Source: an uncultured Candidatus Saccharibacteria bacterium
GTDB lineage: Bacteria; Patescibacteriota; Saccharimonadia; Saccharimonadales; AWTP1-31
Length of the DNA stretch: 64,000 nt
Reading direction: 5' to 3'
Assembly: GCA_964643545.1 (NCBI GenBank)
Contig: CAZXTE010000003.1
Span: 52,463 to 116,462 of the forward strand
The notes below the pieces were generated by a model that had not been told where the DNA came from, searched no databases, and was given only the letters and a program-made list of their open reading frames with translations. Position 1 is the first letter of the stretch. Each line of letters opens with the position of its first letter. Positions 5,019-63,697 of the stretch are shown in pieces. Both the position numbers and the translations under genes were made by a program.

Positions 5019-5513
5019 ATGAATCCGCTTATTGTTATCGGTCTATTAAGTTTAATACCAGTGGCGCTTATTATTCTTATGCGCGTCAATGCTGCAATGG
5101 TTTTTTTAAGTCTTTGCGTGGGCAGCATAACGGCACAATACCTAGGTGATGATACCGACCGTATCTTTAACTCGTTTCTGCCAAATAGCAGTGTCGCTAT
5201 TCAAGCAGCTGTCCGCATTGGTTTGTTCTTGTTGCCCGCATTTTTGACCATTATTTTCTTGCGGCGCAGCGTACATGGGCACAAATACGTATTTAATATT
5301 CTCCCAGCAGTATTAACGGGAGCGGTTACGGCCATATTAGTGGTGCCACTACTGCCGGACGGTACTAAGTATGCAATCACCACAAGCTCGCTTTGGACCA
5401 GCACTCAGCAATTCCAAAGTACCATTGTGGGGGCGGCTGTCCTGATTTGTTTGTTGCAGCTTTGGACAACGCACCCAACCGGACCGCGTGGTGGTCGTCT
5501 CCGACATAAGTAG
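5019..5513 (+). CDS. Hypothetical integral membrane protein
   Basis: 164 aa with 4-5 hydrophobic helices. No recognisable family. Confidence 0.6.
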   Translation: MNPLIVIGLLSLIPVALIILMRVNAAMVFLSLCVGSITAQYLGDDTDRIFNSFLPNSSVAIQAAVRIGLFLLPAFLTIIFLRRSVHGHKYVFNILPAVLTGAVTAILVVPLLPDGTKYAITTSSLWTSTQQFQSTIVGAAVLICLLQLWTTHPTGPRGGRLRHK

Positions 5514-7212
5514 GGTAGGACCCTACATTGACTTTTTGCCAAAAAAAGAGATAATGTAATCTGTTATTTCCCCGTATTGGACATACGGGCCCATAGCTCA
5601 GTAGGTTAGAGCAGTGGCCTTTTAAGCCACGTGTCCTGGGTTCGAATCCCAGTGGGCCCTCCAGTCTAGTAAAATCAGCCTCTTCGGGGGCTTTTTTGTT
5701 ACTACCGTATCTGTAAATAGCACTAATTTCTGGTATATAAACTTTTTTGTCTGGGGAAAGCTGTATTCCCGCAGGGAAAAGCATTTGTTTATATATAAGC
5801 ATCGTAGCCTTGTCTTGCTCCCACCATTTCGTGCTCAGGTTGTCCATGATGTCGAAAGCGTAGCCGATGAACTCACCGAAGTCTTTTTCATAGTCTTGGG
5901 CTTCTGAGGCGGCCTTTTCGGCCTCACCGATTTGTAGCTTTAGTGTGTCGATTTTGTCTTTGATGTCCTGCTTCATTTCAGGGTCTTGCTCAGACAGGTA
6001 GCTGTCCATAGCTGAGTCCTTTTTGTTTCTCAGTAGCTGCACCTTACCTAAGGCGATCCTAGCCCTCTCCATACGCTCAACCTCGTAAGACGACCACACT
6101 TTACGCATGTGGCTCTTGAGCTTTTCACGCTGCTCTTGCGTCATGAGTAGGTCTGAAAGTTCGGTTGTAATTTCTCCATGCACAGCTTCAATACGAGCCT
6201 CTAAGTTACAGGCACGACAGCGGTAGCGTTTGTAGGTGTGATTTTTATTTCTCCCACCTTGCGTCTGCGTTGCACTGGTAAAGCGAGGGTGTTTGAAGCC
6301 AGACAGTGCACACCGCAGACACTCCATCTCATTGGCAAGCGGGTAGTCAGGATTATCCTTGTTGATAGTAAAACGTTTGCCTTTATTCTTAGCTATCGCA
6401 ACCAGTATTTCGTGTTCCTCAGGTGTAATCATAGGTTTATGTAAGCCGTTCTTATTGACCTCAGGCCAATCGGCTAATTTCACGACACCGCAGAAGTAGG
6501 GATCGCACATAAGGTCTTTCCAGCGATACATATCTATTGTCTTGCCACCGACTGCTTTTGGTCCGTAATTCTTTGTACGAAGACCGTCGGCTGTTGCACG
6601 TTTAAGACCCTCACGAATATCACACTCTCCAGCAATCATGGCTTTGAAAGCGTTACGCATAGCTGACCAGTTAGGCTCATCGGGTAGATGTAAGCCAGGC
6701 ACATCAGAGGTTTTATAACCCGTATGAGGGTTGCTTGGGTAATAACCAGCACGAATTTTTGCCATCATCTTCTCAGGTGTCTTATGTATACGTTCGTTGT
6801 TGCTTTGCTCGGCACGGTACACGTCGATCAGCTCATCGAATACAGCACGATCATCATCGGGGTTAATGTCTGGACGGTTAGCGTGTACGAGACGAACACC
6901 GATTTTTTTGAACTCCATCTTCCACCAGTAATATTCTTCGATTGAACGCATGAAGCGGTCTACTTCATCTACAATCAGATACTTCACCGATTTGTAACGC
7001 TTGCAGTAATCAAGCATCTCAATCAAGTCTTTACGCTTTAGGTTCTTGCCCTTGCGACTTGAAACCGCCAAAGCCCAGACTTTTACGAGGTCTACGCCTA
7101 AAATGTCGGCTGCACGTTGTACATTTTCTTGTTGTGGGACTAGGTTGCCCTCGTTTGCTTGGCCTTGAGTTGATACACGGCATAGTGCGATTGCTTTTTC
7201 TTTTGTTGTCAT
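5377..7212 (-). CDS. Large serine recombinase (integrase); 3' part of the ORF is antisense to host tRNA-Lys and neighbouring sequence
   Basis: N-terminal resolvase catalytic domain (AIALCRVSTQGQ..., VDEVDRFMRS), a recombinase domain, a Zn-ribbon (CLRC...CRAC) and a coiled coil. SD GGAGAA precedes the ATG at 7212. The ORF stays open through 5587-5698 (tRNA plus terminator) down to 5377. Confidence 0.85.
   Translation of the reverse strand: MTTKEKAIALCRVSTQGQANEGNLVPQQENVQRAADILGVDLVKVWALAVSSRKGKNLKRKDLIEMLDYCKRYKSVKYLIVDEVDRFMRSIEEYYWWKMEFKKIGVRLVHANRPDINPDDDRAVFDELIDVYRAEQSNNERIHKTPEKMMAKIRAGYYPSNPHTGYKTSDVPGLHLPDEPNWSAMRNAFKAMIAGECDIREGLKRATADGLRTKNYGPKAVGGKTIDMYRWKDLMCDPYFCGVVKLADWPEVNKNGLHKPMITPEEHEILVAIAKNKGKRFTINKDNPDYPLANEMECLRCALSGFKHPRFTSATQTQGGRNKNHTYKRYRCRACNLEARIEAVHGEITTELSDLLMTQEQREKLKSHMRKVWSSYEVERMERARIALGKVQLLRNKKDSAMDSYLSEQDPEMKQDIKDKIDTLKLQIGEAEKAASEAQDYEKDFGEFIGYAFDIMDNLSTKWWEQDKATMLIYKQMLFPAGIQLSPDKKVYIPEISAIYRYGSNKKAPEEADFTRLEGPLGFEPRTRGLKGHCSNLLSYGPVCPIRGNNRLHYLFFWQKVNVGSYPTYVGDDHHAVRLGALSKAATNKSGQPPPQWYFGIAECWSKASLW
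5528..5555 (+). promoter_or_regulatory. Sigma70-like promoter for tRNA-Lys(UUU)
   Basis: TTGACT (5528-5533), a 16-nt spacer, then GATAAT (5550-5555), about 30 nt upstream of the tRNA 5' end. Confidence 0.5.
5587..5663 (+). tRNA. tRNA-Lys (anticodon UUU), CCA encoded
   Basis: Cloverleaf drawn by hand: acceptor GGGCCCA/TGGGCCC, anticodon arm GTGGC-CTTTTAA-GCCAC, T arm CTGGG-TTCGAAT-CCCAG. Confidence 0.93.
5677..5698 (+). terminator. Rho-independent terminator after tRNA-Lys(UUU)
   Basis: Hairpin AGCCTC-TTCG-GGGGCT followed by TTTTTT. Confidence 0.75.
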
Positions 7213-7481
7213 GGTATTCTCCTCTGTTAAGTATATATCTATGAAATATTATTAGCAATCTGTCCAATATTTGTGTTCGGTTCACTGGTCAGGTCTGCTT
7301 GCTTCTTTTTCTTGTATTGAGCGAGAAGAAAAGCAGCCAGCTCATCGAAAGCCCTTTCGTACTCCTTTTTAGTTGTTGGCTGCTGAGTTTCGCTCATGCC
7401 CTAATAATATGGCGAAATAGCCTAGAATCTTAGGGAGAATCACCCACTATAACAGGGGTGATAATGACGTTATTCGGGATA

Positions 7482-8246
7482 TTACTTCGGCAGCTTTTTA
7501 GGGCGTATTTGTTGGTTGCCGTAGGTATTCTGGAATAGCTGAAATGATAGTGGGAAAACCTTGGCGTTTAACCTGTAGCCACCCACTTGAGTAATAACTT
7601 TATTGTCTACACCACCACAAGCCTTACGCAATGCACTGATTGCGTCGTTAATGGCGTACTTTATTGGGTCGTCCTTATGGTCAATTTTTGCTATTACTTC
7701 CATCGTTGCTCTGTCGATCACATTTGGTGCGGCGAGAAACAATGCCTTGAATAGTCTCTTGTTTCTTCCTTTAAGATAGACAGCATGTCCATTGACTAAG
7801 CCACGACCTGAATTGAGGTCGTAATAAGCAAGATTTGGAACGGATTCATCTTCAATAGATTCCTCGTAGCCGTCGTAATTGGTTAGTCTTGCATCTGTTT
7901 TCTGTAGTGTTAGCAATAGCTCCTCAAAAGCGTAGCGGTTAATGATCGTTACCATGTAGTCGTCACCGCTACTGCCAGCAGCTACATACTTATAATCTTC
8001 CATGAACTTCAATTCGATTATCGCTGCACCCTCTGCCAACCACTTGAGGCACATGAGCCTACTCCATACAAAACTAGTGTTGTCTGGATTATTGTGCTCG
8101 TCGAAATCACCAACGAATACAGGGTGGTTGTCGGCGAGTCCACCAAGTTGATAGGTAACGGCGTACATCGTATCAAGCAAAGCCCTACAGACCGCTTCAC
8201 GCTTACCCTCGTCCATAGCTTCTAGTTGTTCAAGATATGTGCTCAT
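7482..8246 (-). CDS. Hypothetical protein with C-terminal OmpR/PhoB-type winged-helix DNA-binding domain
   Basis: C-terminus ...RLFKALFLAAPNVIDRATMEVI...AISALRKACGG...VITQVGGYRLN resembles Trans_reg_C. The N-terminal 150 aa are unassigned. Confidence 0.6.
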   Translation of the reverse strand: MSTYLEQLEAMDEGKREAVCRALLDTMYAVTYQLGGLADNHPVFVGDFDEHNNPDNTSFVWSRLMCLKWLAEGAAIIELKFMEDYKYVAAGSSGDDYMVTIINRYAFEELLLTLQKTDARLTNYDGYEESIEDESVPNLAYYDLNSGRGLVNGHAVYLKGRNKRLFKALFLAAPNVIDRATMEVIAKIDHKDDPIKYAINDAISALRKACGGVDNKVITQVGGYRLNAKVFPLSFQLFQNTYGNQQIRPKKLPK

Positions 8247-8312
8247 CTACAGCCATTTTACGTCAAATGTCATACTTATAAGAGAGGGTTACGCAAAAAC
8301 AAAGGAGCTATT

Positions 8313-8546
8313 ATGGCAATAAGAAAAGCCATCGGAAGACCAAATAAAATAAATCGTCGGGTAATGATAAAGTTGGCTGACGCAATACAACACAACGCCA
8401 ACATCACCGATGCGTGTAGGTACGCTGGCATTAGTCGCCAGACTTATTATTACTATTTGAGTAACGAAGCAGTATTCGCCGAAACAATGACTACGGCCAA
8501 AAATAATCAAGACAAGCTGGTGATGAGTTTTCTGACAGTCTGGTGA
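8313..8546 (+). CDS. Small helix-turn-helix protein (77 aa)
   Basis: AAGGAG SD lies 6 nt before ATG 8313. GRPNKI...ITDACRYAGISRQTYYYYL is a classic HTH of the resolvase or terminase-small-subunit N-terminal type. Confidence 0.65.
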   Translation: MAIRKAIGRPNKINRRVMIKLADAIQHNANITDACRYAGISRQTYYYYLSNEAVFAETMTTAKNNQDKLVMSFLTVW

Positions 8547-8726
8547 AAACACGCATGTTTTCGCTAGGTTTTTATAAAATTTGATGTCAGTAAAGTCGGA
8601 TTCTGGGAAAAAAATTTGGGAGCAGTTGCTCTCTGTTCTAGTTAAGTAAAAGATGAACGACTTGATTAACCCTCTAGGACGCTCCTTGGGGTCGTAGGAC
8701 AGGTTTTAGAGCACAATATGGGTAAT

Positions 8727-9164
8727 TTATTGCTCTTGTTTGAGCCATTGCTCAAAGGCTTCAACAGTCGGGAATATGTGATCAAAAATATTGTAAAGCG
8801 TTTCGGTTTTTTCTAGCTTGCCGATAGCAATACAACGCTTGCCAAGTCCGTAGGCAACGCCAGCTTCAATGTGTGCAGCAATGCCAGCGGGAAACACTAG
8901 TAAAAAGGTATCGGCTTCACGCTCGGCTTTCATGTCAATATCAAATATCTTTTCTATAAAAGGGTGGTCTTGGGGCAGGTCTTCAAGCTGTGCCATGAAT
9001 ACTTCTGGTTCGCCGTCCATCTTTAGTTCGATTATCTCGCCCTTGTAGTCGTTTTCTAGAAAGCAGTAAGCAGTCTTGCCGTTTGCTCGTACTAGGTCAA
9101 GTACGGGCTTAATATTGTCTTTGTTTCGCCAGCGTCCAGCAATAAAGTAATCTGTTTTAGCCAT
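8727..9164 (-). CDS. Nucleoside 2-deoxyribosyltransferase-like protein
   Basis: N-terminal YFIAGRW and C-terminal FPAGIAAHIEAGVAYGLGKRCIAIG match the NDT-family Rossmann-like pattern (hYhAGP ... E.G.A.alGKP). Start taken at MAKTDYF. Confidence 0.6.
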   Translation of the reverse strand: MAKTDYFIAGRWRNKDNIKPVLDLVRANGKTAYCFLENDYKGEIIELKMDGEPEVFMAQLEDLPQDHPFIEKIFDIDMKAEREADTFLLVFPAGIAAHIEAGVAYGLGKRCIAIGKLEKTETLYNIFDHIFPTVEAFEQWLKQEQ

Positions 9165-9252
9165 AGGTAGATTGTAGCAGAAACGAGACTTGTAAAGCGG
9201 TGTTAAAGCTATAATGATTGACATGTATATATCTAACAAAATCAGGTACTAA

Positions 9253-57155: not shown

Positions 57156-57232
57156 GGGCCAGTAGCTCAGCTGGTTAGAGCGTCTGCCTCTTAAGCAGAA
57201 TGTCGAGGGTTCGAGTCCCTCCTGGCCCTCCA
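57156..57232 (+). tRNA. tRNA-Lys (anticodon CUU), CCA encoded
   Basis: GGGCCAG...TCTGC-CTCTTAA-GCAGA...GAGGG-TTCGAGT-CCCTC-CTGGCCC-T-CCA. Confidence 0.93.
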
Positions 57233-57241
57233 ACTAAGAAC

Positions 57242-57264
57242 GCCATCCACCGGATGGCTTTTTT
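57242..57264 (+). terminator. Rho-independent terminator after tRNA-Lys(CUU)
   Basis: GCCATCC-ACC-GGATGGC followed by TTTTTT. Confidence 0.75.
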
Positions 57265-57392
57265 AGTTGGTCGGTTCAGTATGGATCCCGAACCCGAATG
57301 AGTGAGCACAGCGAACGGAGGGTTCGGTGTAGCGAGGCTACTCACAGGTGCTTGCACCGAGAACAACCGAGCGGAAAAGGACGAAGTCCGCT

Positions 57393-57411
57393 GTCCCTCC
57401 TGGCCCTCCAA
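57393..57411 (+). repeat. Exact 19-bp duplicate of the tRNA-Lys(CUU) 3' end (att-like copy 2)
   Basis: GTCCCTCCTGGCCCTCCAA occurs at 57215-57233 (inside and just past the tRNA) and again at 57393-57411. Confidence 0.9.
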
Positions 57412-57437
57412 GCATAAGTGTTATGAAATTTCTGTAG

Positions 57438-58808
57438 TTACTGAGCTGCGGTGTAAAGATTCCGCTTGAGTTGATAACCAGGCTTATCAGCATTTGCGAC
57501 CATTTCTACGACAACTTTGCCTCTAGCTACTAGTAAAACCAGCACATTGCGCATTGTTTCGCTCTTGATCGGCCTGCCTACCATTTCTCTGTATGCGTCT
57601 GTTAGTTCATGAAGCGTCCCCTGTCCACGCTCTGCAACAAGTGTCTCCACCTCAACTGCAGTGGCGAGAGTGCTTTTCTTTTGTGCATAGGGGGAAAACG
57701 CAAACGCTTTACTCATAATCTGAGCACGTTGTGCAGGATCTTGCTTTACTTCTTGCAAAAGCCCCAAGCCCTCTCTACGCATCCTTTCATCATCATCCTC
57801 TAGAATCTTTAGGATACTAAGGAACTCTTCTACAGCATCGTTGTGATCATCTTTGACACGAAAACGAGTTAGAGCACCATCGTTAAATCGCGCTGGATCG
57901 GCCTTTGTTATGCCCTTATAAAATCGCTGACTAAAATATGCGTTGTGGATTGCTCTTCGTACCTTCATTGGATCGACTTGCAAACCTTGATCGGATAATC
58001 TATTCAAGGTTAGCACTACTGCGTCATTGTAACCTATTGCTAGGGGAGCATCTCTGTCCGTTCTTTTAGCATCTAAGACAGCAATGACCTCGTACAGGGC
58101 CCGAGCAACTTCATAGCGAGGCTGGTTTGCAACGTTATCGGGCATGTGAGGGTCGACAATTAACAATTCTCTATCATCATCAAATTCCACAGTTTCTGCA
58201 CACAAAATACCTGCTACGGCAAGAGCGTTGACGGCTTTTGATATGCGCGTTCGCTCCTGCTTGTATTCAAGTGACTCCCAGTCTGGGTCAATAACGTCAG
58301 CAAAAGCTGCACGCACACTAAGGCCACCAATGGCGGGTGCGCTTATAGCATCTTCTAGCACCCGGCTTCTGGTTTCACCCGCACGAAACTTACCGCTAGA
58401 ATTAGTATTACCCAACAAATCCTGCAACGACACATTTGGGTAGCGTAAACTCCAGTCCAGTAAGAACCCGGCGGCTGGTACGGCTAACCTCTCTCCATAA
58501 TCTGTTAACCTATGCGCGCGAGCCTCAATCTGCCTTGCAATAACCAACTCCTCTGATACGGTACCTGCTGGAACGAGGCTCTGCCGACAATAACTATAGG
58601 CGGCCATAGAATTGGGCACCCAAGTCGGGTACTCCTGCTGTGGTTCGTTCATTGCCCTGTGTAACTGGCTAGCCGTAAGTGCAGTAGGTTGACAATCGAG
58701 AGCCATAAACACCATCAATTTCGCCTCGTGATTAAATGCCCGCGAGGCTAGCTCGGGTATAGACTGTGGCGTATCAATAGTCGTTGCAGACATTAGTATA
58801 TTATACAA
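57438..58808 (-). CDS. Hypothetical protein (456 aa), possibly with winged-helix-like segments
   Basis: Long clean ORF. wHTH-like stretches at the N- and C-termini (judged by eye, weak). No family recognised. Confidence 0.65.
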   Translation of the reverse strand: MYNILMSATTIDTPQSIPELASRAFNHEAKLMVFMALDCQPTALTASQLHRAMNEPQQEYPTWVPNSMAAYSYCRQSLVPAGTVSEELVIARQIEARAHRLTDYGERLAVPAAGFLLDWSLRYPNVSLQDLLGNTNSSGKFRAGETRSRVLEDAISAPAIGGLSVRAAFADVIDPDWESLEYKQERTRISKAVNALAVAGILCAETVEFDDDRELLIVDPHMPDNVANQPRYEVARALYEVIAVLDAKRTDRDAPLAIGYNDAVVLTLNRLSDQGLQVDPMKVRRAIHNAYFSQRFYKGITKADPARFNDGALTRFRVKDDHNDAVEEFLSILKILEDDDERMRREGLGLLQEVKQDPAQRAQIMSKAFAFSPYAQKKSTLATAVEVETLVAERGQGTLHELTDAYREMVGRPIKSETMRNVLVLLVARGKVVVEMVANADKPGYQLKRNLYTAAQ

Positions 58809-58888
58809 TAAAGTATGAAAATATACTACTATTGGGCTTCTGAGAGAACTATCAGATGATTTAAGTCGTATAGTTTAGTTGCAATTAG

Positions 58889-58908
58889 CTCTACGATGGC
58901 CCTCCAAT
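58889..58908 (+). repeat. att-like copy 3: CTCTACGATGGCCCTCCAAT
   Basis: An 11-nt match (TGGCCCTCCAA) to the tRNA 3' end, and 17/20 identity to copy 5, including the non-tRNA arm CTCTACGA. Confidence 0.7.
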
Positions 58909-59016
58909 CCTGATTTTATTTTAAATCCTCAGCCCGACGAGTTTCTCTTTGCTTGCAATTGATTAATAAAGTGATACACTTCACACGATTATTAAGGGTG
59001 GTGAGTTAAGGAACGT

Positions 59017-59583
59017 ATGGCCGATATTATTGAGTGCGTTGAACCTACAGGATTTGAAGCGGTTGACGGCACCTGGCAGTTTGACCTCGACTTTTACCGA
59101 GAAATAGGTTTGAATCTTGCACCCCTTGAAGATCCGAGCGAAACTGCAGCAATGCCAAGACTTCGAAGGGCTGCTGGACTTTTTGTGGCCACAGAAACCA
59201 GCACAAAGGCGAGTCCCGATCAGCAGGAGCGAGCTAGGACCTTACTCCTTGATGCACACTCAGCTGTTGGCCAGCTTATGCGCCAAGCACTACGCGGCAT
59301 TAGCTATGACGGGATAGATGAAGATCATCCTGCTGTTGTTGCATGGAAAGAGCGAGACCCGGAAGCTGCAAGAAGACAATGTCAACCGAACGGACCAATG
59401 TTTAATCAGCTGGACTGGATTTATCTTGGGCTCGTACGAGAACGAATGCCAGACATCGATTCTGATACTGGAACGGCAAAGTACGTTCCCATAGTCATCC
59501 CCGGCACGAATCATTATCGCACTCCCACTGAAGTTGCTAGTCAGCTCACGCTTGCACGTGCAGGCGTTTGGTGGGATATATAA
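59017..59583 (+). CDS. Hypothetical protein (188 aa)
   Basis: ORF with an upstream GGTGGTGAG purine-rich stretch. No family recognised. Confidence 0.6.
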   Translation: MADIIECVEPTGFEAVDGTWQFDLDFYREIGLNLAPLEDPSETAAMPRLRRAAGLFVATETSTKASPDQQERARTLLLDAHSAVGQLMRQALRGISYDGIDEDHPAVVAWKERDPEAARRQCQPNGPMFNQLDWIYLGLVRERMPDIDSDTGTAKYVPIVIPGTNHYRTPTEVASQLTLARAGVWWDI

Positions 59584-59601
59584 GTTGCAATAGGTAGCAC
59601 T

Positions 59602-59614
59602 ATGACCCTCCAAT
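59602..59614 (+). repeat. att-like copy 4 (degenerate): ATGACCCTCCAAT
   Basis: Matches copy 3 (ATGGCCCTCCAAT) at 12/13 positions. It lies in the 59583/59661 intergenic gap. Confidence 0.5.
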
Positions 59615-59660
59615 GCGCTTATGATTGCAAGTTTATCCATGCTAGTTTACTGTAAGTGAT

Positions 59661-59951
59661 ATGCCTGAAACAGAAGCAGTATCCGCTCAAGCATCTCCGA
59701 ACGGAACACCCCTTATAACACGTCGACATTTAATAGGCGGTGGCTTAGCCGTCGGCCTGTTTGCTGCTGCCGGAGGGATCGGAATATATTTAGGTAGAGA
59801 TGGCGGACCGACACCAACTGAGAGGGATATTATTGAAGGAATTGAGAGTGAGTGGCAAAATGTAGCTGTTTTTGCAGGTGGCCTTGTGTTGGGCTCAGAG
59901 ACGAAATTAAACAGAAGCCCTGACTTCGGGGAAGACCAAGAGGTCGAATGA
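59661..59951 (+). CDS. Tat-signal-like N-terminal part of a gene interrupted by in-frame TGA
   Basis: TRRHLIGGGLAVGLFAAAGG looks like a twin-arginine signal. It ends at TGA 59949-59951 in the same frame as 59967..61085. Confidence 0.55.
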   Translation: MPETEAVSAQASPNGTPLITRRHLIGGGLAVGLFAAAGGIGIYLGRDGGPTPTERDIIEGIESEWQNVAVFAGGLVLGSETKLNRSPDFGEDQEVE

Positions 59952-59966
59952 CCTGCTCAGGGAAAA

Positions 59967-61085
59967 GTGCTTGGCGTAAGAAGACCAGTAATGGTCGCTC
60001 AGTCCACTGATATGAATGGATACGATAGCGGAGAGATTGACCCTAATGTTATGGGCCTGTGGCTTCCTGGCTCATCCGATCAACTAGTATTCGCGCGGTA
60101 TAATCGTAGCGACTCATTTTGGCCCATCTACAGAGGAAGGGACACTGGCTATACTAAAGATCTTGGGCAGATGACGGGTGAAACTGTCAAGCTCGAACCA
60201 GGTGGTAGTCCTCGTCATTTTATTGTAGAACGTCCAGAGTATAAGGATAAGGAGTCTCGTACTCGCCGCAAAGACGTGGGGCGGTCGGCTGCTATAAGTC
60301 CTACAGAAGTGCGTGCATTCGTGAGAAGCCTAGAAGAAACGTATGGAGGATTTGAAATAAGAGACTGGGTAGAGTACTCAGGGCTTGGCCAAGATTTTCA
60401 GCAAGTTGACGAAGGGTATTTTGACGACACATCTGAAATTTCGGATAAGCTGACTGATAAGATTTCTCGAGGGCTTGAGTCTGATTGGAGCGATATTAAT
60501 GTCTTCGGTGGGGTTGTGGGTATTAACAAGACTTCTTCGGTATTTAGCGACCCAAGGCTTGTCAAAGGCAGTGAAGTCGAATGGCCGAAAGACTACCCCC
60601 ATGCAGTGGTAGTTCGACCTATGTTCGTAGTTGGCTCTAGCAGAATAAATATAGATGGTGAAGAACTAGAACAAGTTGAAAAGGCCATCAGGCGTACAAC
60701 TATAGGTTTCTGGCTGCCTGGTCCAAATCGATTTGTTTATATGGATACACAAACCAATTCAGGCAACATGATACCTATAGCGAGAGGATTCTATCCTGAC
60801 CAAGTAAAGGCTAATGGGCTCTTAGGATATGACGTATCTCTAGACGGCAGAGAAGCAAAAGGAGGCGTTTCCTTCCCTTACTTTAATGATGAATATAGCG
60901 AGCAAATTGCTGAAGGGGGATATGATGAGGAGACCTCCAGTTATACGCGACCTCAGTACGAACGGAGAATCCGACGAGCATTAGTGGGGCATAGTCTAGG
61001 GTTCTCTAGCGGTGCTGATGCTGTAGCCACTCTCGACGCTTTTTCTACGGGTGACATGGCCCAACCTCTAATACTAGAAGACTAA
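59967..61085 (+). CDS. Hypothetical protein, downstream part of the same reading frame (internal tandem domain duplication)
   Basis: Same frame as 59661..59951. The sequence spanning the TGA aligns with an internal repeat (ESDWSDINVFGG...SEVEWP...VVRPMFVVGS...GFWLPGPNRFVY). Confidence 0.6.
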   Translation: MLGVRRPVMVAQSTDMNGYDSGEIDPNVMGLWLPGSSDQLVFARYNRSDSFWPIYRGRDTGYTKDLGQMTGETVKLEPGGSPRHFIVERPEYKDKESRTRRKDVGRSAAISPTEVRAFVRSLEETYGGFEIRDWVEYSGLGQDFQQVDEGYFDDTSEISDKLTDKISRGLESDWSDINVFGGVVGINKTSSVFSDPRLVKGSEVEWPKDYPHAVVVRPMFVVGSSRINIDGEELEQVEKAIRRTTIGFWLPGPNRFVYMDTQTNSGNMIPIARGFYPDQVKANGLLGYDVSLDGREAKGGVSFPYFNDEYSEQIAEGGYDEETSSYTRPQYERRIRRALVGHSLGFSSGADAVATLDAFSTGDMAQPLILED

Positions 61086-61122
61086 CATTTGTACTAACCC
61101 TAGGAATCTTAGTTGTAACGGA

Positions 61123-61143
61123 CTCTACGAAGGCCCTTCAACT
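61123..61143 (+). repeat. att-like copy 5: CTCTACGAAGGCCCTTCAACT
   Basis: GGCCCTTCAACT against the tRNA end plus flank GGCCCTCCAACT (11/12). It shares the CTCTACGA arm with copy 3 and lies in the 61085/61165 gap. Confidence 0.65.
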
Positions 61144-61164
61144 CGGTTATGCTACGATTATTGC

Positions 61165-61587
61165 ATGGCGAAGAGAGACAAAAGAGTAGACTGGGGACTA
61201 ACATTCCTTCTGATCCCATCTCAGATTATTCGGCATATATACTACAAATATTTTTTGAACCGCTTAAGTCGAGAGAGTCAGCTTCTCCCACTTAGATCCC
61301 CGGGAAGAAGTTTTAATGTAGATTCATTGTTAGTAGCTAAATTACCGATGCGTATCTTCGCAATAATTTTGTCCATTCTCTCGACAGCTTTAGTTAGCTT
61401 AGTGTCGCTACCATTGTTAATTAGGACAGACCGTCTAGATAGGTACCGGGGCAGGAGCTTGCCAGAAACAATTGGCGTTCTGTTAGCAACCTGGCTATTT
61501 GTATGGGGCATTCGCAACACGATATGGATGGTGCGCCATTTCAAGTTCACACTAGCAGAATTTAAAGTAAGGTATGGCGCAAAATAA
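61165..61587 (+). CDS. Hypothetical membrane protein (140 aa)
   Basis: Two to three TM helices. No family recognised. Confidence 0.55.
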   Translation: MAKRDKRVDWGLTFLLIPSQIIRHIYYKYFLNRLSRESQLLPLRSPGRSFNVDSLLVAKLPMRIFAIILSILSTALVSLVSLPLLIRTDRLDRYRGRSLPETIGVLLATWLFVWGIRNTIWMVRHFKFTLAEFKVRYGAK

Positions 61588-61792
61588 ATCTACGCGAGCC
61601 TTAGTGCAGCAAGCTCTCCAATACGTAACAAGAATACATGACTTTGAAGACGGATTTATCTTACTCGCAGAAGCGTGACGAATAATCTTGGAAATGATCA
61701 CCGGTATCGTTTATTGTCAGTCGCGGTATTAAAGTTTTGTGTTTTGGTGTATAAATTGGCTACAGAATAACACAGGAATCAAGGAGCGATCT

Positions 61793-62748: not shown

Positions 62749-63309
62749 TTAACGGCCTCCACTTGTGGGTTTGTAATTCTGGAAGGTATCTCGAATTGCG
62801 AAAAAAGCTTGCTTTGGCGTATAGTCACTTCTGAAAAGTAACGGGTCAGCATCGTCTAAACCGATTCCGTTATACCAACTTTGGCGATCGATAAGCCCAA
62901 GAAAGCCAAAGTTGCGGCAAATTTTCGGCCCCACCTGCAAACAGGCTTTTAGCATATCGGCATAAATCCCTGCCTGCCGTTGCTCTTTCTCTTTATCGCT
63001 TCCTTTGGAGTCGTGCATGTTTACGTCAAATTCAGTGATGTATACTTTTAATCCCAGATCGGCGAATCTACGCATGTTGGAGACTACTTTTTCTGTTGAT
63101 GGGTTGTTGACGCTACTGATGTGCATCTGCATACCGATTGCATCTATTGGTATGCCACGAGACTTGGCGCCTTTAATGTAGTCGTACATCAAATTCGAAA
63201 TATCGCTCTCAGTTTCATTGCCAAAATCGTTTAAAATTAATACAGCATTCGGATCGGCTTCTCTTGCCCAAATAAAGGCATTGTCGATGCCGGTAGAATT
63301 AATCGCTCC
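62749..63309 (-). pseudogene. Glycoside hydrolase family 10 (xylanase-like) C-terminal fragment, N-terminal half missing
   Basis: The frame is open without a start from 63324. ...AREADPNAVLILNDFGNE...PIDAIGMQMHI...VYITEFDV (nucleophile Glu motif) are present, but the N-terminal ~150 aa of the GH10 barrel, including the acid/base Glu, are absent. Confidence 0.6.
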
Positions 63310-63697
63310 AACGGACGAATATGGTCAGCGGTTGCTGAGTAGACAAGTAAAATCGGCTGACGCCGAAAATGTGATGGGAATAACGAACAACCAAACTAAA
63401 CGAGAGATTAGCCGCTTGGCGGAACGTGCTTTTATTGCCCTTGGTGCTCGTGACTACGGTCGTATTGATGTTCGAATGGATGCAGGGGGAAACGCAAACT
63501 TCCTAGAGGCAAATCTTATCCCAAGCCTCATTGCCGATTACGGCAGTTTCCCAAAAGCATGTTCGCTTAATAATCAAATTGATTACGAGTCGATGATTTT
63601 GCGCATTGTTCGGTTGGGTTTTGCGCGTAATGTTGGTGCTAGCGAAGACGTTCGCGAATCATTCACACCAAATACTACCAGTCCCGCGTACTTCTGA
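63300..63697 (+). pseudogene. D-alanine-D-alanine ligase-like (ATP-grasp) C-terminal fragment
   Basis: ...REISRLAERAFIALGARDYGRIDVRMDAGGNANFLEANLIPSL...SFPKAC...YESMILRIVRLG matches only the last ~110 aa of Ddl-type ligases. The upstream part of the ORF is antisense to the GH10 fragment. Confidence 0.55.

Follow-up and report, generated by a model that had tools for sequence, protein, structure and literature searches.

In the 64-kb stretch of Saccharibacteria DNA analysed computationally here (64,000 nucleotides (nt), referred to throughout as the window), the 3′ end of a tRNA-Lys(CUU) gene is followed by a compact island of orphan genes, and short sequences matching that 3′ end recur in the gaps between them. 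The island is probably composed of four gene cassettes and one gene-less unit, placed at the 3′ end of the tRNA gene through site-specific integration by a recombinase acting in trans, and by its sequence the array is one of a family of similar arrays found in Saccharibacteria. Its features are given below in the order in which they lie, with the cargo described as genes or open reading frames (ORFs) and protein lengths in amino acids (aa).

57156..57232, + strand: tRNA-Lys(CUU), the anchor of the array (ARAGORN; Rfam tRNA, 74 bits).
57234..57392, + strand: unit X, gene-less; a hairpin terminator at 57230-57270 (terminator scan), then GAGGGTTCG...GTCCCTCC.
57393..57432, + strand: tRNA 3′-end copy with trailer; the exact 19 nt (57393-57411), then the trailer GCATAAGTGTTATGAAA.
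57438..58793, − strand: cargo gene of cassette 1 (which runs to 58876); 451-aa orphan protein, leaderless, TATAAT 6 nt before the ATG.
58877..58908, + strand: site c3, AGTTGCAATTAGCTCTACGATGGCCCTCCAAT.
59017..59583, + strand: cargo gene of cassette 2 (to 59582); 188-aa orphan protein; c4 begins on the last base of its TAA stop codon (59581-59583).
59583..59614, + strand: site c4, AGTTGCAATAGGTAGCACTATGACCCTCCAAT, then the trailer GCGCTTATGATTGCAAG.
59661..61085, + strand: cargo ORF of cassette 3 (to 61110); 474 codons, twin-arginine-like N-terminus, in-frame TGA at 59949-59951.
61111..61142, + strand: site c5, AGTTGTAACGGACTCTACGAAGGCCCTTCAAC, then TCGGTTATGC-TACGAT-N6-ATG.
61165..61587, + strand: cargo gene of cassette 4 (to about 61705); 140-aa predicted membrane protein, looks leaderless, TGcTACGAT 6 nt before the ATG.
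61588..61725, + strand: right end of the island; homology to the related contig L004 resumes at about 61706, ATCGTTTATTGTCAGTCG versus ATCCCTGTTGTACTTAAGTCGG in L004.

The sequence GTCCCTCCTGGCCCTCCAA, consisting of the last 18 nt of the tRNA and one further base, occurs exactly at 57215-57233 and again at 57393-57411, as the first-pass annotation of this DNA had stated, and no third copy is present in the window with up to 3 mismatches allowed (0.02 expected). The last 9-10 nt of the tRNA (57224-57233, GGCCCTCCA+A) form the core common to every site. The three shorter copies described in that annotation were recovered as well, namely TGGCCCTCCAA at 58897-58907, ATGACCCTCCAAT at 59602-59614 and GGCCCTTCAACT at 61132-61143, each positioned in a gap between the orphan ORFs and 5′ of an ORF on the + strand. 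A left arm had been said to be shared by copies 3 and 5, and their 17/20 identity holds; the arm is not restricted to these two, as it is found at c4 too, and all three short copies fall into one 44-nt repeat family. The pattern TTGYAA-N18-TYCAAY has exactly three matches in the 64 kb, at c3, c4 and c5, where 0.12 would be expected. The short copies are in fact 32-nt sites of the form AGTTGYAA-N13-GRCCCTYCAAY, in which a conserved arm unrelated to the tRNA is joined to the last 9-11 nt of tRNA-Lys, and the proposal that repeated integration had left progressively decayed tRNA cores was not borne out, these being well-conserved sites of 32-50 nt with a non-tRNA left arm. A profile hidden Markov model (HMM) of the site, trained partly on the window copies, finds in the window only c3 (58874-58923, E = 4e-12), c4 (59582-59631, E = 3e-11), c5 (61108-61158, E = 1e-9) and the two tRNA-end copies, with the E-values of the window copies being flattering because these copies were among the training sequences.

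The same site recurs in other Saccharibacteria. A search pattern derived from the three window copies, AGTTGYAA-N8-AC-N-A-N-GRCCCTYCAAY, matched 36 metagenome contigs, none of them viral, and had no match among the IMG/VR viral contigs. These 36 contigs are conserved also at the positions left free in the pattern and for about 17 nt past it, giving the consensus tttAGTTGCAAYAGc-TCyACGATGGCCCTCCAAT, which in most sites continues with n-CG-n-TTATG-y-TTAAAC, a hairpin, a T-run and TGnTAnnnT, the ATG following about 6 nt on. The left arm, which has no counterpart in the tRNA, is conserved across genomes of 35-53% GC, and the 32-mer of c3 is identical to a site in one of the metagenome contigs (L017). 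The earlier suggestion that the copies are related recombination-site-like sequences and not chance matches to the tRNA is borne out.

The sites are anchored and polar. Of the 36 loci, 21 have a tRNA-Lys gene that points the same way as the site, and 20 have it upstream, at a distance of 0.6-6.7 kb (tRNA-Lys(CUU) in 17, tRNA-Lys(UUU) in 3); at one locus, L038, the tRNA-Lys was found downstream of the site, and L051, a longer version of the same contig, has a tRNA-Lys(CUU) approximately 0.7 kb upstream of that site. The core GRCCCTCCA corresponds to nine bases common to both tRNA-Lys isoacceptors and is repeated at every junction except the outermost one of the window. Many weaker copies are detected with the HMM, with up to 14 in L025, 13 in L048 and 11 in L049, and the matches at E < 0.01, 116 in number, are all found on the strand of the tRNA, the opposite strand having none, and are spaced by a median of 736 nt. 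The arrays are compact: the upstream ORF uses the TAG of the site as its stop codon in 12 of 57 cases, the next ORF usually starts 47-61 nt past the core, and in L035 five of seven terminator-like hairpins come immediately after a site. Units of 0.6-0.8 kb with a single gene, in which the sites are intact and highly conserved and terminator and promoter follow a stereotyped layout, are present in more than 10 independent loci. Neither in the window outside the island nor in the 21-kb locus L051 outside its array does the HMM find a match, the matches being confined to the stretch downstream of tRNA-Lys, which argues that the motif is not a generic genomic element; a density check of this kind had been proposed together with the original observation. 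A dispersed intergenic repeat of the REP or MITE type, which would be spread over the whole genome in both orientations and often have terminal inverted repeats, was likewise discarded, given that the matches in the window and in L051 occur only downstream of tRNA-Lys and that all are in one orientation.

With every copy lying 5′ of a + strand gene and with the promoter-like spacing of TTGCAA-N18-TCCAAT, the sites might be taken for a purely regulatory motif, i.e. a promoter, operator or terminator element whose resemblance to the tRNA end would be coincidental. This is extremely improbable, as TCCAAT makes a poor -10 element, a consensus promoter scan skips the sites, and neither the tRNA-Lys anchoring nor the breakpoints at the core (described below) would be explained. 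The specific identification as a sigma-70 promoter, in which the -35 and -10 hexamers are 16-18 nt apart and the -10 has A at position 2 and T at position 6, was rejected on the same scan, TCCAAT being without the near-invariant A at position 2. The promoter-like element of the family lies elsewhere, TGnTAnnnT being located 6 nt before the ATG and 3′ of the terminator that follows the site. As a separate observation, many genes both in the window (58794-58810, 61146-61167) and in the arrays L018, L035, L040, L042, L049 and others look leaderless, with no Shine-Dalgarno sequence and with the ATG preceded at about 6 nt by an extended -10 (TGnTAnnnT), which often merges with the T-run of the terminator before it.

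As to the nature of the site, RNAalifold applied to 37 aligned sites gave no consensus structure on either strand and no covarying column pairs, and Rfam identified only tRNAs, so that a tRNA-like or other structured RNA was rejected. The conservation resides in the primary sequence, for which a double-stranded protein-binding site is the simplest reading. An attC-like site was discarded on the missing fold and covariation, and also as the ends of the site (GTT...AAC) are in the reverse of the attC order RYYYAAC...GTTRRRY. A dif/Xer site was discarded as well: the right-hand TTAT(G) is present and the left arm ends in ...CCTCCA, not in ATAA, while the variant trailer CATAA-GYR-TTATG has a spacer of 3 nt only. 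The right arm TTATG-n-TTAAA resembles a XerD arm. Set against the attP and attB sites of large serine recombinases, which measure 40-50 bp, have an imperfect dyad symmetry about a central crossover dinucleotide and are recombined by their cognate enzyme, the site has a length of about 49 nt and a weak symmetry of its ends (GTTGCAA... / ...TTAAAC), both of which would be compatible.

The genes flanking the island match Saccharibacteria assemblies of GTDB, with protein identities of up to 89%. In a close relative, L004 (DAISWP010000006, approximately 90% nucleotide identity), the sequence is collinear with the window up to the CCAA of the tRNA (57233) and resumes at about 61706, the 4.47 kb in between (57234-61705) being absent, so that L004 provides the empty site and the orphan genes do constitute an island, as had been proposed. 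The sequence resuming at the right edge (ATCGTTTATTGTC...) corresponds to the trailer of the L004 tRNA (ATCCCTGTTGTAC...). Neither a site nor a tRNA-end repeat precedes that edge (~61705), which corrects the earlier picture of the array. A sixth, decayed copy suspected at 61600-61626 was dismissed, not rising above background. In its GC content the island is not distinct from its surroundings.

Comparison of related arrays, which the first-pass annotation had called for, reveals variable content between conserved sites and places the breakpoints at the core. L051 (JGI) and L052 (ENA) are 99.93% identical over 17,815 nt, including the tRNA-Lys(CUU) and the first cassette, and are unrelated from ...GCCTCGCTGG(G/A)CCCTCCA-A onwards, where they continue with AGCATAAGCAC... 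and ATACGCTTATGCTTAAAAC..., respectively. At this junction a fragment of the tRNA forms the left arm and the two right arms are different, so that the partners of the event would have shared only the ~10-nt core; the G/A difference goes with the right-hand side, by which the exchange is placed at the core's 5′ edge. L023 and L038 show 100% identity across a cassette and its site as far as GGCCCTCCAAT, beyond which they are unrelated, while the cassette common to L046 and L049 (89% identical) starts at GCCCTCCA and brings its own trailer, terminator and promoter. A Logan contig from the source samples of the window (L014) spans exactly 57204-58907 and ends at the last base of the CCAA of c3, one base inside the 3′ end of that site, which suggests an assembly branch there. 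The crossover can be resolved no finer than the core (~9 nt). From these breakpoints a cassette would run from one core to the next and be composed of the trailer, which includes terminator and promoter, one or more genes and the conserved left arm.

The main rival to site-specific integration is homologous recombination, in which the module of site, trailer, terminator and promoter would be kept for expression or RNA reasons and would provide short arms through which RecA swaps cassettes. Consistent with that, a module of up to ~85 nt is nearly identical between arrays with different neighbours (L018, L030, L031, L033), and the cassette common to L035 and L038 ends inside the site, its two copies differing already within the left arm. 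Moreover, L055 encodes a Competence-domain gene, and natural competence is known in Saccharibacteria. The L051/L052 breakpoint, however, has only the ~10-nt core in common, which is too little for RecA, and swapping by homology would leave unexplained why the core is the end of tRNA-Lys, why arrays start at tRNA-Lys and why 116 of 116 matches share one polarity; nor does any conserved RNA structure or covariation point to an RNA role for the module. We consider this explanation unlikely.

From the sequence comparisons we infer a site-specific mechanism that would proceed through a circular intermediate. The site flanking each cassette spans ~50 nt and is made up of three parts: a conserved left arm borne by the cassette (AGTTGCAAYAG-nn-TCYACGAT), a core of 9-11 nt (GRCCCTCCA(AT)) identical to the end of tRNA-Lys, and a right arm like the tRNA's own trailer, often A-T-n-CG-n-TTATG-n-TTAAAC, after which most members of the family have a terminator hairpin, the TGnTAnnnT promoter and, 6 nt on, a leaderless ATG. 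In the proposed model, a circular cassette with a single site recombines with the tRNA-Lys 3′ end, with the crossover presumably at the 5′ edge of the core or within it. The last bases of the tRNA would thereby be rebuilt by the core of the incoming cassette, which would account for every cassette keeping GRCCCTCCA, and the original end, once displaced, would form the distal junction of the cassette. Because the right arm of the cassette resembles the native trailer, the site next to the tRNA would stay competent, allowing more cassettes to be stacked in one orientation.

The copy at 57393 is, by its sequence, a junction of a different kind from c3-c5, being attB-like, with a left arm of the tRNA type and a native-looking trailer. 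Over 34-36 nt, its tRNA end and trailer are 94-97% identical to those of the intact tRNA-Lys genes in L019 and L049, and the junction looks like a displaced original tRNA end. Between it and the tRNA lies unit X, in which GAGGGTTCG...GTCCCTCC looks like a T-arm split by an insert of ~75 nt, and the fold of which is more stable than that of shuffled sequences (z = -3.5). The window segment 57318-57414 is 86% identical over 98 nt to L043 (754-850), where the stretch also lies just 3′ of tRNA-Lys, and a unit analogous to X is present in L051/L052, 3′ of the first cassette. These recurrent gene-less units (window X, L043, L051/L052) are ~160-185 nt long and have at their start a long terminator hairpin pairing with the CCAACT of the tRNA and at their end a tRNA-Lys 3′ fragment. 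It was also observed that L035 carries two complete tRNA-Lys(CUU) genes (1475-1551 and 5294-5370) in one array, with four cassettes between them.

The exact 19-nt repeat flanking unit X, which is 159 nt long, looks like a scar, and brings in the possibility that integrase-carrying islands at tRNA-Lys have lost their integrases and most of their content, leaving attL and attR sequences behind. Such erosion may explain unit X and its repeat. An element that carries an integrase and an 18-nt tRNA-end repeat does exist at tRNA-Lys(UUU) in the relative L055, and tandem integrations with remnants are documented for tycheposon islands (10.1101/2020.12.28.424599). As an account of the array as a whole it is very unlikely, in that random loss would not give rise to stereotyped single-gene units with intact sites in more than 10 loci, the left arm is of non-tRNA origin and conserved across genomes of widely different GC content, and no integrase fragments were found in the arrays. 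The other alternative offered at the outset, i.e. that of cassette-like units mobilised in trans, is the one favoured by the comparative data.

The trans-acting enzyme that site-specific integration calls for was sought both in and around the arrays. No recombinase domain is present in the four island ORFs, in agreement with the initial description of the segments as integrase-less, or in the cargo sampled from the other arrays, and the box II pattern of tyrosine recombinases has no match in the window or in any of the loci. Apparent serine-recombinase matches in the array loci were discarded, being antisense translations of tRNA-Lys only. The genes upstream of tRNA-Lys are housekeeping genes (FolC, DHFR, FolD, MurI), and a recurrent flank family considered as a recombinase in cis proved to be FolD. 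At the other end of the window, 51 kb from the array, lie the only recombinase of the window and a second tRNA-Lys gene:

5587-5663, + strand: tRNA-Lys(UUU), the 3′ end of which carries the same GGCCCTCCA core.
5683-7212, − strand (the ORF runs on to 5377): large serine recombinase gene with a Resolvase domain, convergent with tRNA-Lys(UUU).

The recombinase has 578 homologues, and the order RimK, DUF192, tRNA-Lys(UUU), recombinase recurs in L051-L055. In L055 it belongs to an element of ~5.7 kb with an 18-nt stretch of the tRNA end repeated at its borders, so that tRNA-Lys 3′ ends are very probably where the enzyme acts; its gene in L051 is 7 kb from the cassette array. A role in the cassettes is argued against by the arm of the recombinase element, which is unlike the 32-nt cassette arm, and by its repeat, which starts further into the tRNA (in the T-loop). 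The first-pass annotation had drawn attention to this recombinase: that it adjoins the other tRNA-Lys with the GGCCCTCCA core is correct, while its link to the sites is circumstantial, and as the candidate trans-acting enzyme for the cassettes it appears possible though on balance doubtful. A host tyrosine recombinase encoded elsewhere in the genome would be an equally possible candidate.

Several side observations were made on this element. The recombinase ORF (5377-7212) extends, in antisense, over the full length of the tRNA-Lys(UUU) gene and ~200 nt further, the same overlap being called in L055, and the homologues of the enzyme range from 437 to 626 aa. At the tRNA-Lys(UUU) element, L055 encodes an LD-carboxypeptidase (7440-8483) where the window has a different 170-aa ORF (8247-9252); the LD-carboxypeptidase family occurs as a cassette in the arrays L015 and L025, and no site was detected beside the L055 copy.

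Should this recombinase nevertheless be the enzyme concerned, the arrays could be viewed as a gene-capture platform convergent with integrons, in which the tRNA-Lys 3′ end would take the part of attI, the 50-nt double-stranded site that of attC and the large serine recombinase at tRNA-Lys(UUU), conserved in the chromosome, that of the integrase, with self-expressing cassettes, each having a terminator, an extended -10 promoter and a leaderless ORF of its own, moving between strains, perhaps by natural transformation. This more far-reaching proposal is tentative and seems rather unlikely; if true, it would amount to a cassette system driven by a serine recombinase.

The cargo was surveyed in 123 non-redundant ORFs selected from the arrays, which are mostly singletons in clustering and of which 95 are co-oriented with their array. 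Among the sampled products are PIN and YafQ/ParE toxins, with the PhdYeFM antitoxin, an APH phosphotransferase, GNAT acetyltransferases, NUDIX, a GDSL lipase, LD-carboxypeptidase (S66 peptidase), an ABC transporter and an ArsR regulator. In the window itself the four island ORFs have no match in Pfam, PHROGs, PADLOC or NCBIfam; a viral origin was rejected on the lack of matches in PHROGs and of the motif in IMG/VR, and a defence system on that of PADLOC matches. For the 451-aa protein of cassette 1, a set of 5.8 billion proteins contains no more than 3 homologues, at 67-68% identity, and the 188-aa protein of cassette 2 belongs to a small family with 21 representatives in 1.84 billion proteins. 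The in-frame TGA of cassette 3 (59949-59951) aligns with a Trp conserved in both full-length homologues (P0126 and P0127, 480 and 464 aa) and therefore looks like a TGG-to-TGA nonsense mutation, the ORF being a probable pseudogene. In L009 (522-2820), a 68%-identical homologue of the 451-aa protein is divergent from an HTH_3/SocA_Panacea (antitoxin-type) gene, a hint that this orphan family may act in a toxin-antitoxin system or in connection with defence. Outside the island, the window (62749-63697) has divergently oriented genes for a GH10 protein (147 aa) and a D-Ala-D-Ala ligase (159 aa) that are both 5′-truncated relative to L004 (380 and 362 aa), and ~1.6 kb of L004 (14695-16287) is missing from the window.

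It has to be noted that a number of points weigh against site-specific integration in trans. No recombinase is linked to the arrays, and the informative breakpoints number only about five; in cases in which the complete conserved site is present in either partner alike, homologous recombination may have acted. The site lies in the 3′ untranslated region of each cassette, so that it may have a role at the level of the RNA. Since it was the motif that led to the metagenome loci, these give no measure of how prevalent the arrays are among Saccharibacteria. The array in the window is atypical, its distal junction being without a site, c3 without the usual trailer and c3-c5 without a terminator hairpin, and is somewhat degenerate. 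Finally, the homologues of the cassette-1 protein all occur in other contexts without the site, and those of the cassette-3 protein are not flanked by sites either; they were accordingly rejected as independent cassette copies, and are uninformative on the mobility of these two cassettes.

Saccharibacteria are episymbionts with genomes of ~1 Mb, in which the gain and shuffling of accessory genes are poorly understood, and to our knowledge integrons have not been found in bacteria with such ultra-small genomes. If the proposed reading is true, the tRNA-Lys hotspot would be a main route by which genes move in the lineage, carrying toxin-antitoxin pairs, phosphotransferases, acetyltransferases and cell-wall enzymes, and would represent an independent solution to the problem that integrons solve. 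The short and well-defined site makes the cassette idea directly testable, and could serve as a landing pad for genetics in these organisms. An incomplete search of the literature yielded no description of such arrays in Saccharibacteria, which is weak evidence of novelty; the system is apparently undescribed and apparently consists of site-specific gene-cassette arrays with sites different from those of the known systems.

Among these, integrons and the attC site clusters that have no integron integrase (CALINs; PMC4889954) likewise consist of one-directional arrays of small, mostly single-gene cassettes separated by a recurring site, receive insertions at a fixed point, the array head, and carry a very diverse, largely unknown cargo with toxin-antitoxin modules, the content of which differs between close strains; with CALINs the arrays described here also share the lack of an integrase nearby. 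The attC sites are imperfect palindromes that fold (R''-L''...L'-R' boxes with extrahelical bases) and are conserved in structure, not in sequence (PMC4889954), whereas the sites of the tRNA-Lys arrays are conserved in sequence and not in structure, showing no palindromic R/L-box hairpin and no covariation. In addition, no signature of IntI or of a tyrosine recombinase is found here, the head of the array is a tRNA 3′ end and not an attI beside intI, and most cassettes carry their own terminator and promoter in place of a common Pc promoter.

In the tycheposons of Prochlorococcus (10.1101/2020.12.28.424599), an island also grows from the 3′ end of a specific tRNA with the older material pushed outwards, the units are separated by repeats of the tRNA end, and the heterogeneity between strains is high beside the tRNA. 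Here, too, the insertion lies at the 3′ end of a tRNA and tRNA sequence is directly repeated at the junctions, save for the outermost junction of the window. Tycheposons differ in carrying an integrase and usually a replication module and in measuring many kb, while the units here are 0.4-1.5 kb with neither, and in their separators, which are partial tRNAs of ~40 nt as opposed to a non-tRNA arm with 9-11 nt of tRNA.

The Xer-dependent modules, such as the dif modules of Acinetobacter plasmids (PMC11705084) and the Xer-exploiting elements (PMC6449649), are similarly small accessory modules with short sites and no recombinase of their own, presumably mobilised in trans by a recombinase of the host. 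An Xer site has two 11-bp arms around a central region of 6-8 bp, with the signature ATAA-central region-TTAT (PMC11705084); the cassette site can be parsed as 11 + 6-7 + 11 nt, yet this signature is absent from its main type, the left arm of which ends in ...CTCCA. The dif sites, furthermore, mostly alternate in orientation, in contrast to the arrays described here, which are all direct, chromosomal and anchored to a tRNA.

The elements of large serine recombinases have in common with the arrays the targeting of the tRNA-Lys 3′ end with its GGCCCTCCA core, a site of ~50 nt that is close to the length of a serine-integrase attP, and a GTT-containing outer motif that lies ~6 nt further from the core in the cassette sites than in the tRNA, an offset that recalls the difference in spacing between attP and attB of these enzymes. 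They differ in their 18-19 nt tRNA-end repeat, which starts from the T-loop, and in an arm unlike the 32-nt cassette arm, and no recombinase gene lies within the cassette arrays. Integrons, tycheposons and Xer modules each have defining features that are absent here. By analogy, the layout and presumed function of the tRNA-Lys arrays are closest to those of chromosomal integrons and CALINs, their anchoring to that of tycheposon islands, and their putative dependence on an enzyme in trans to that of the Xer-dependent modules.

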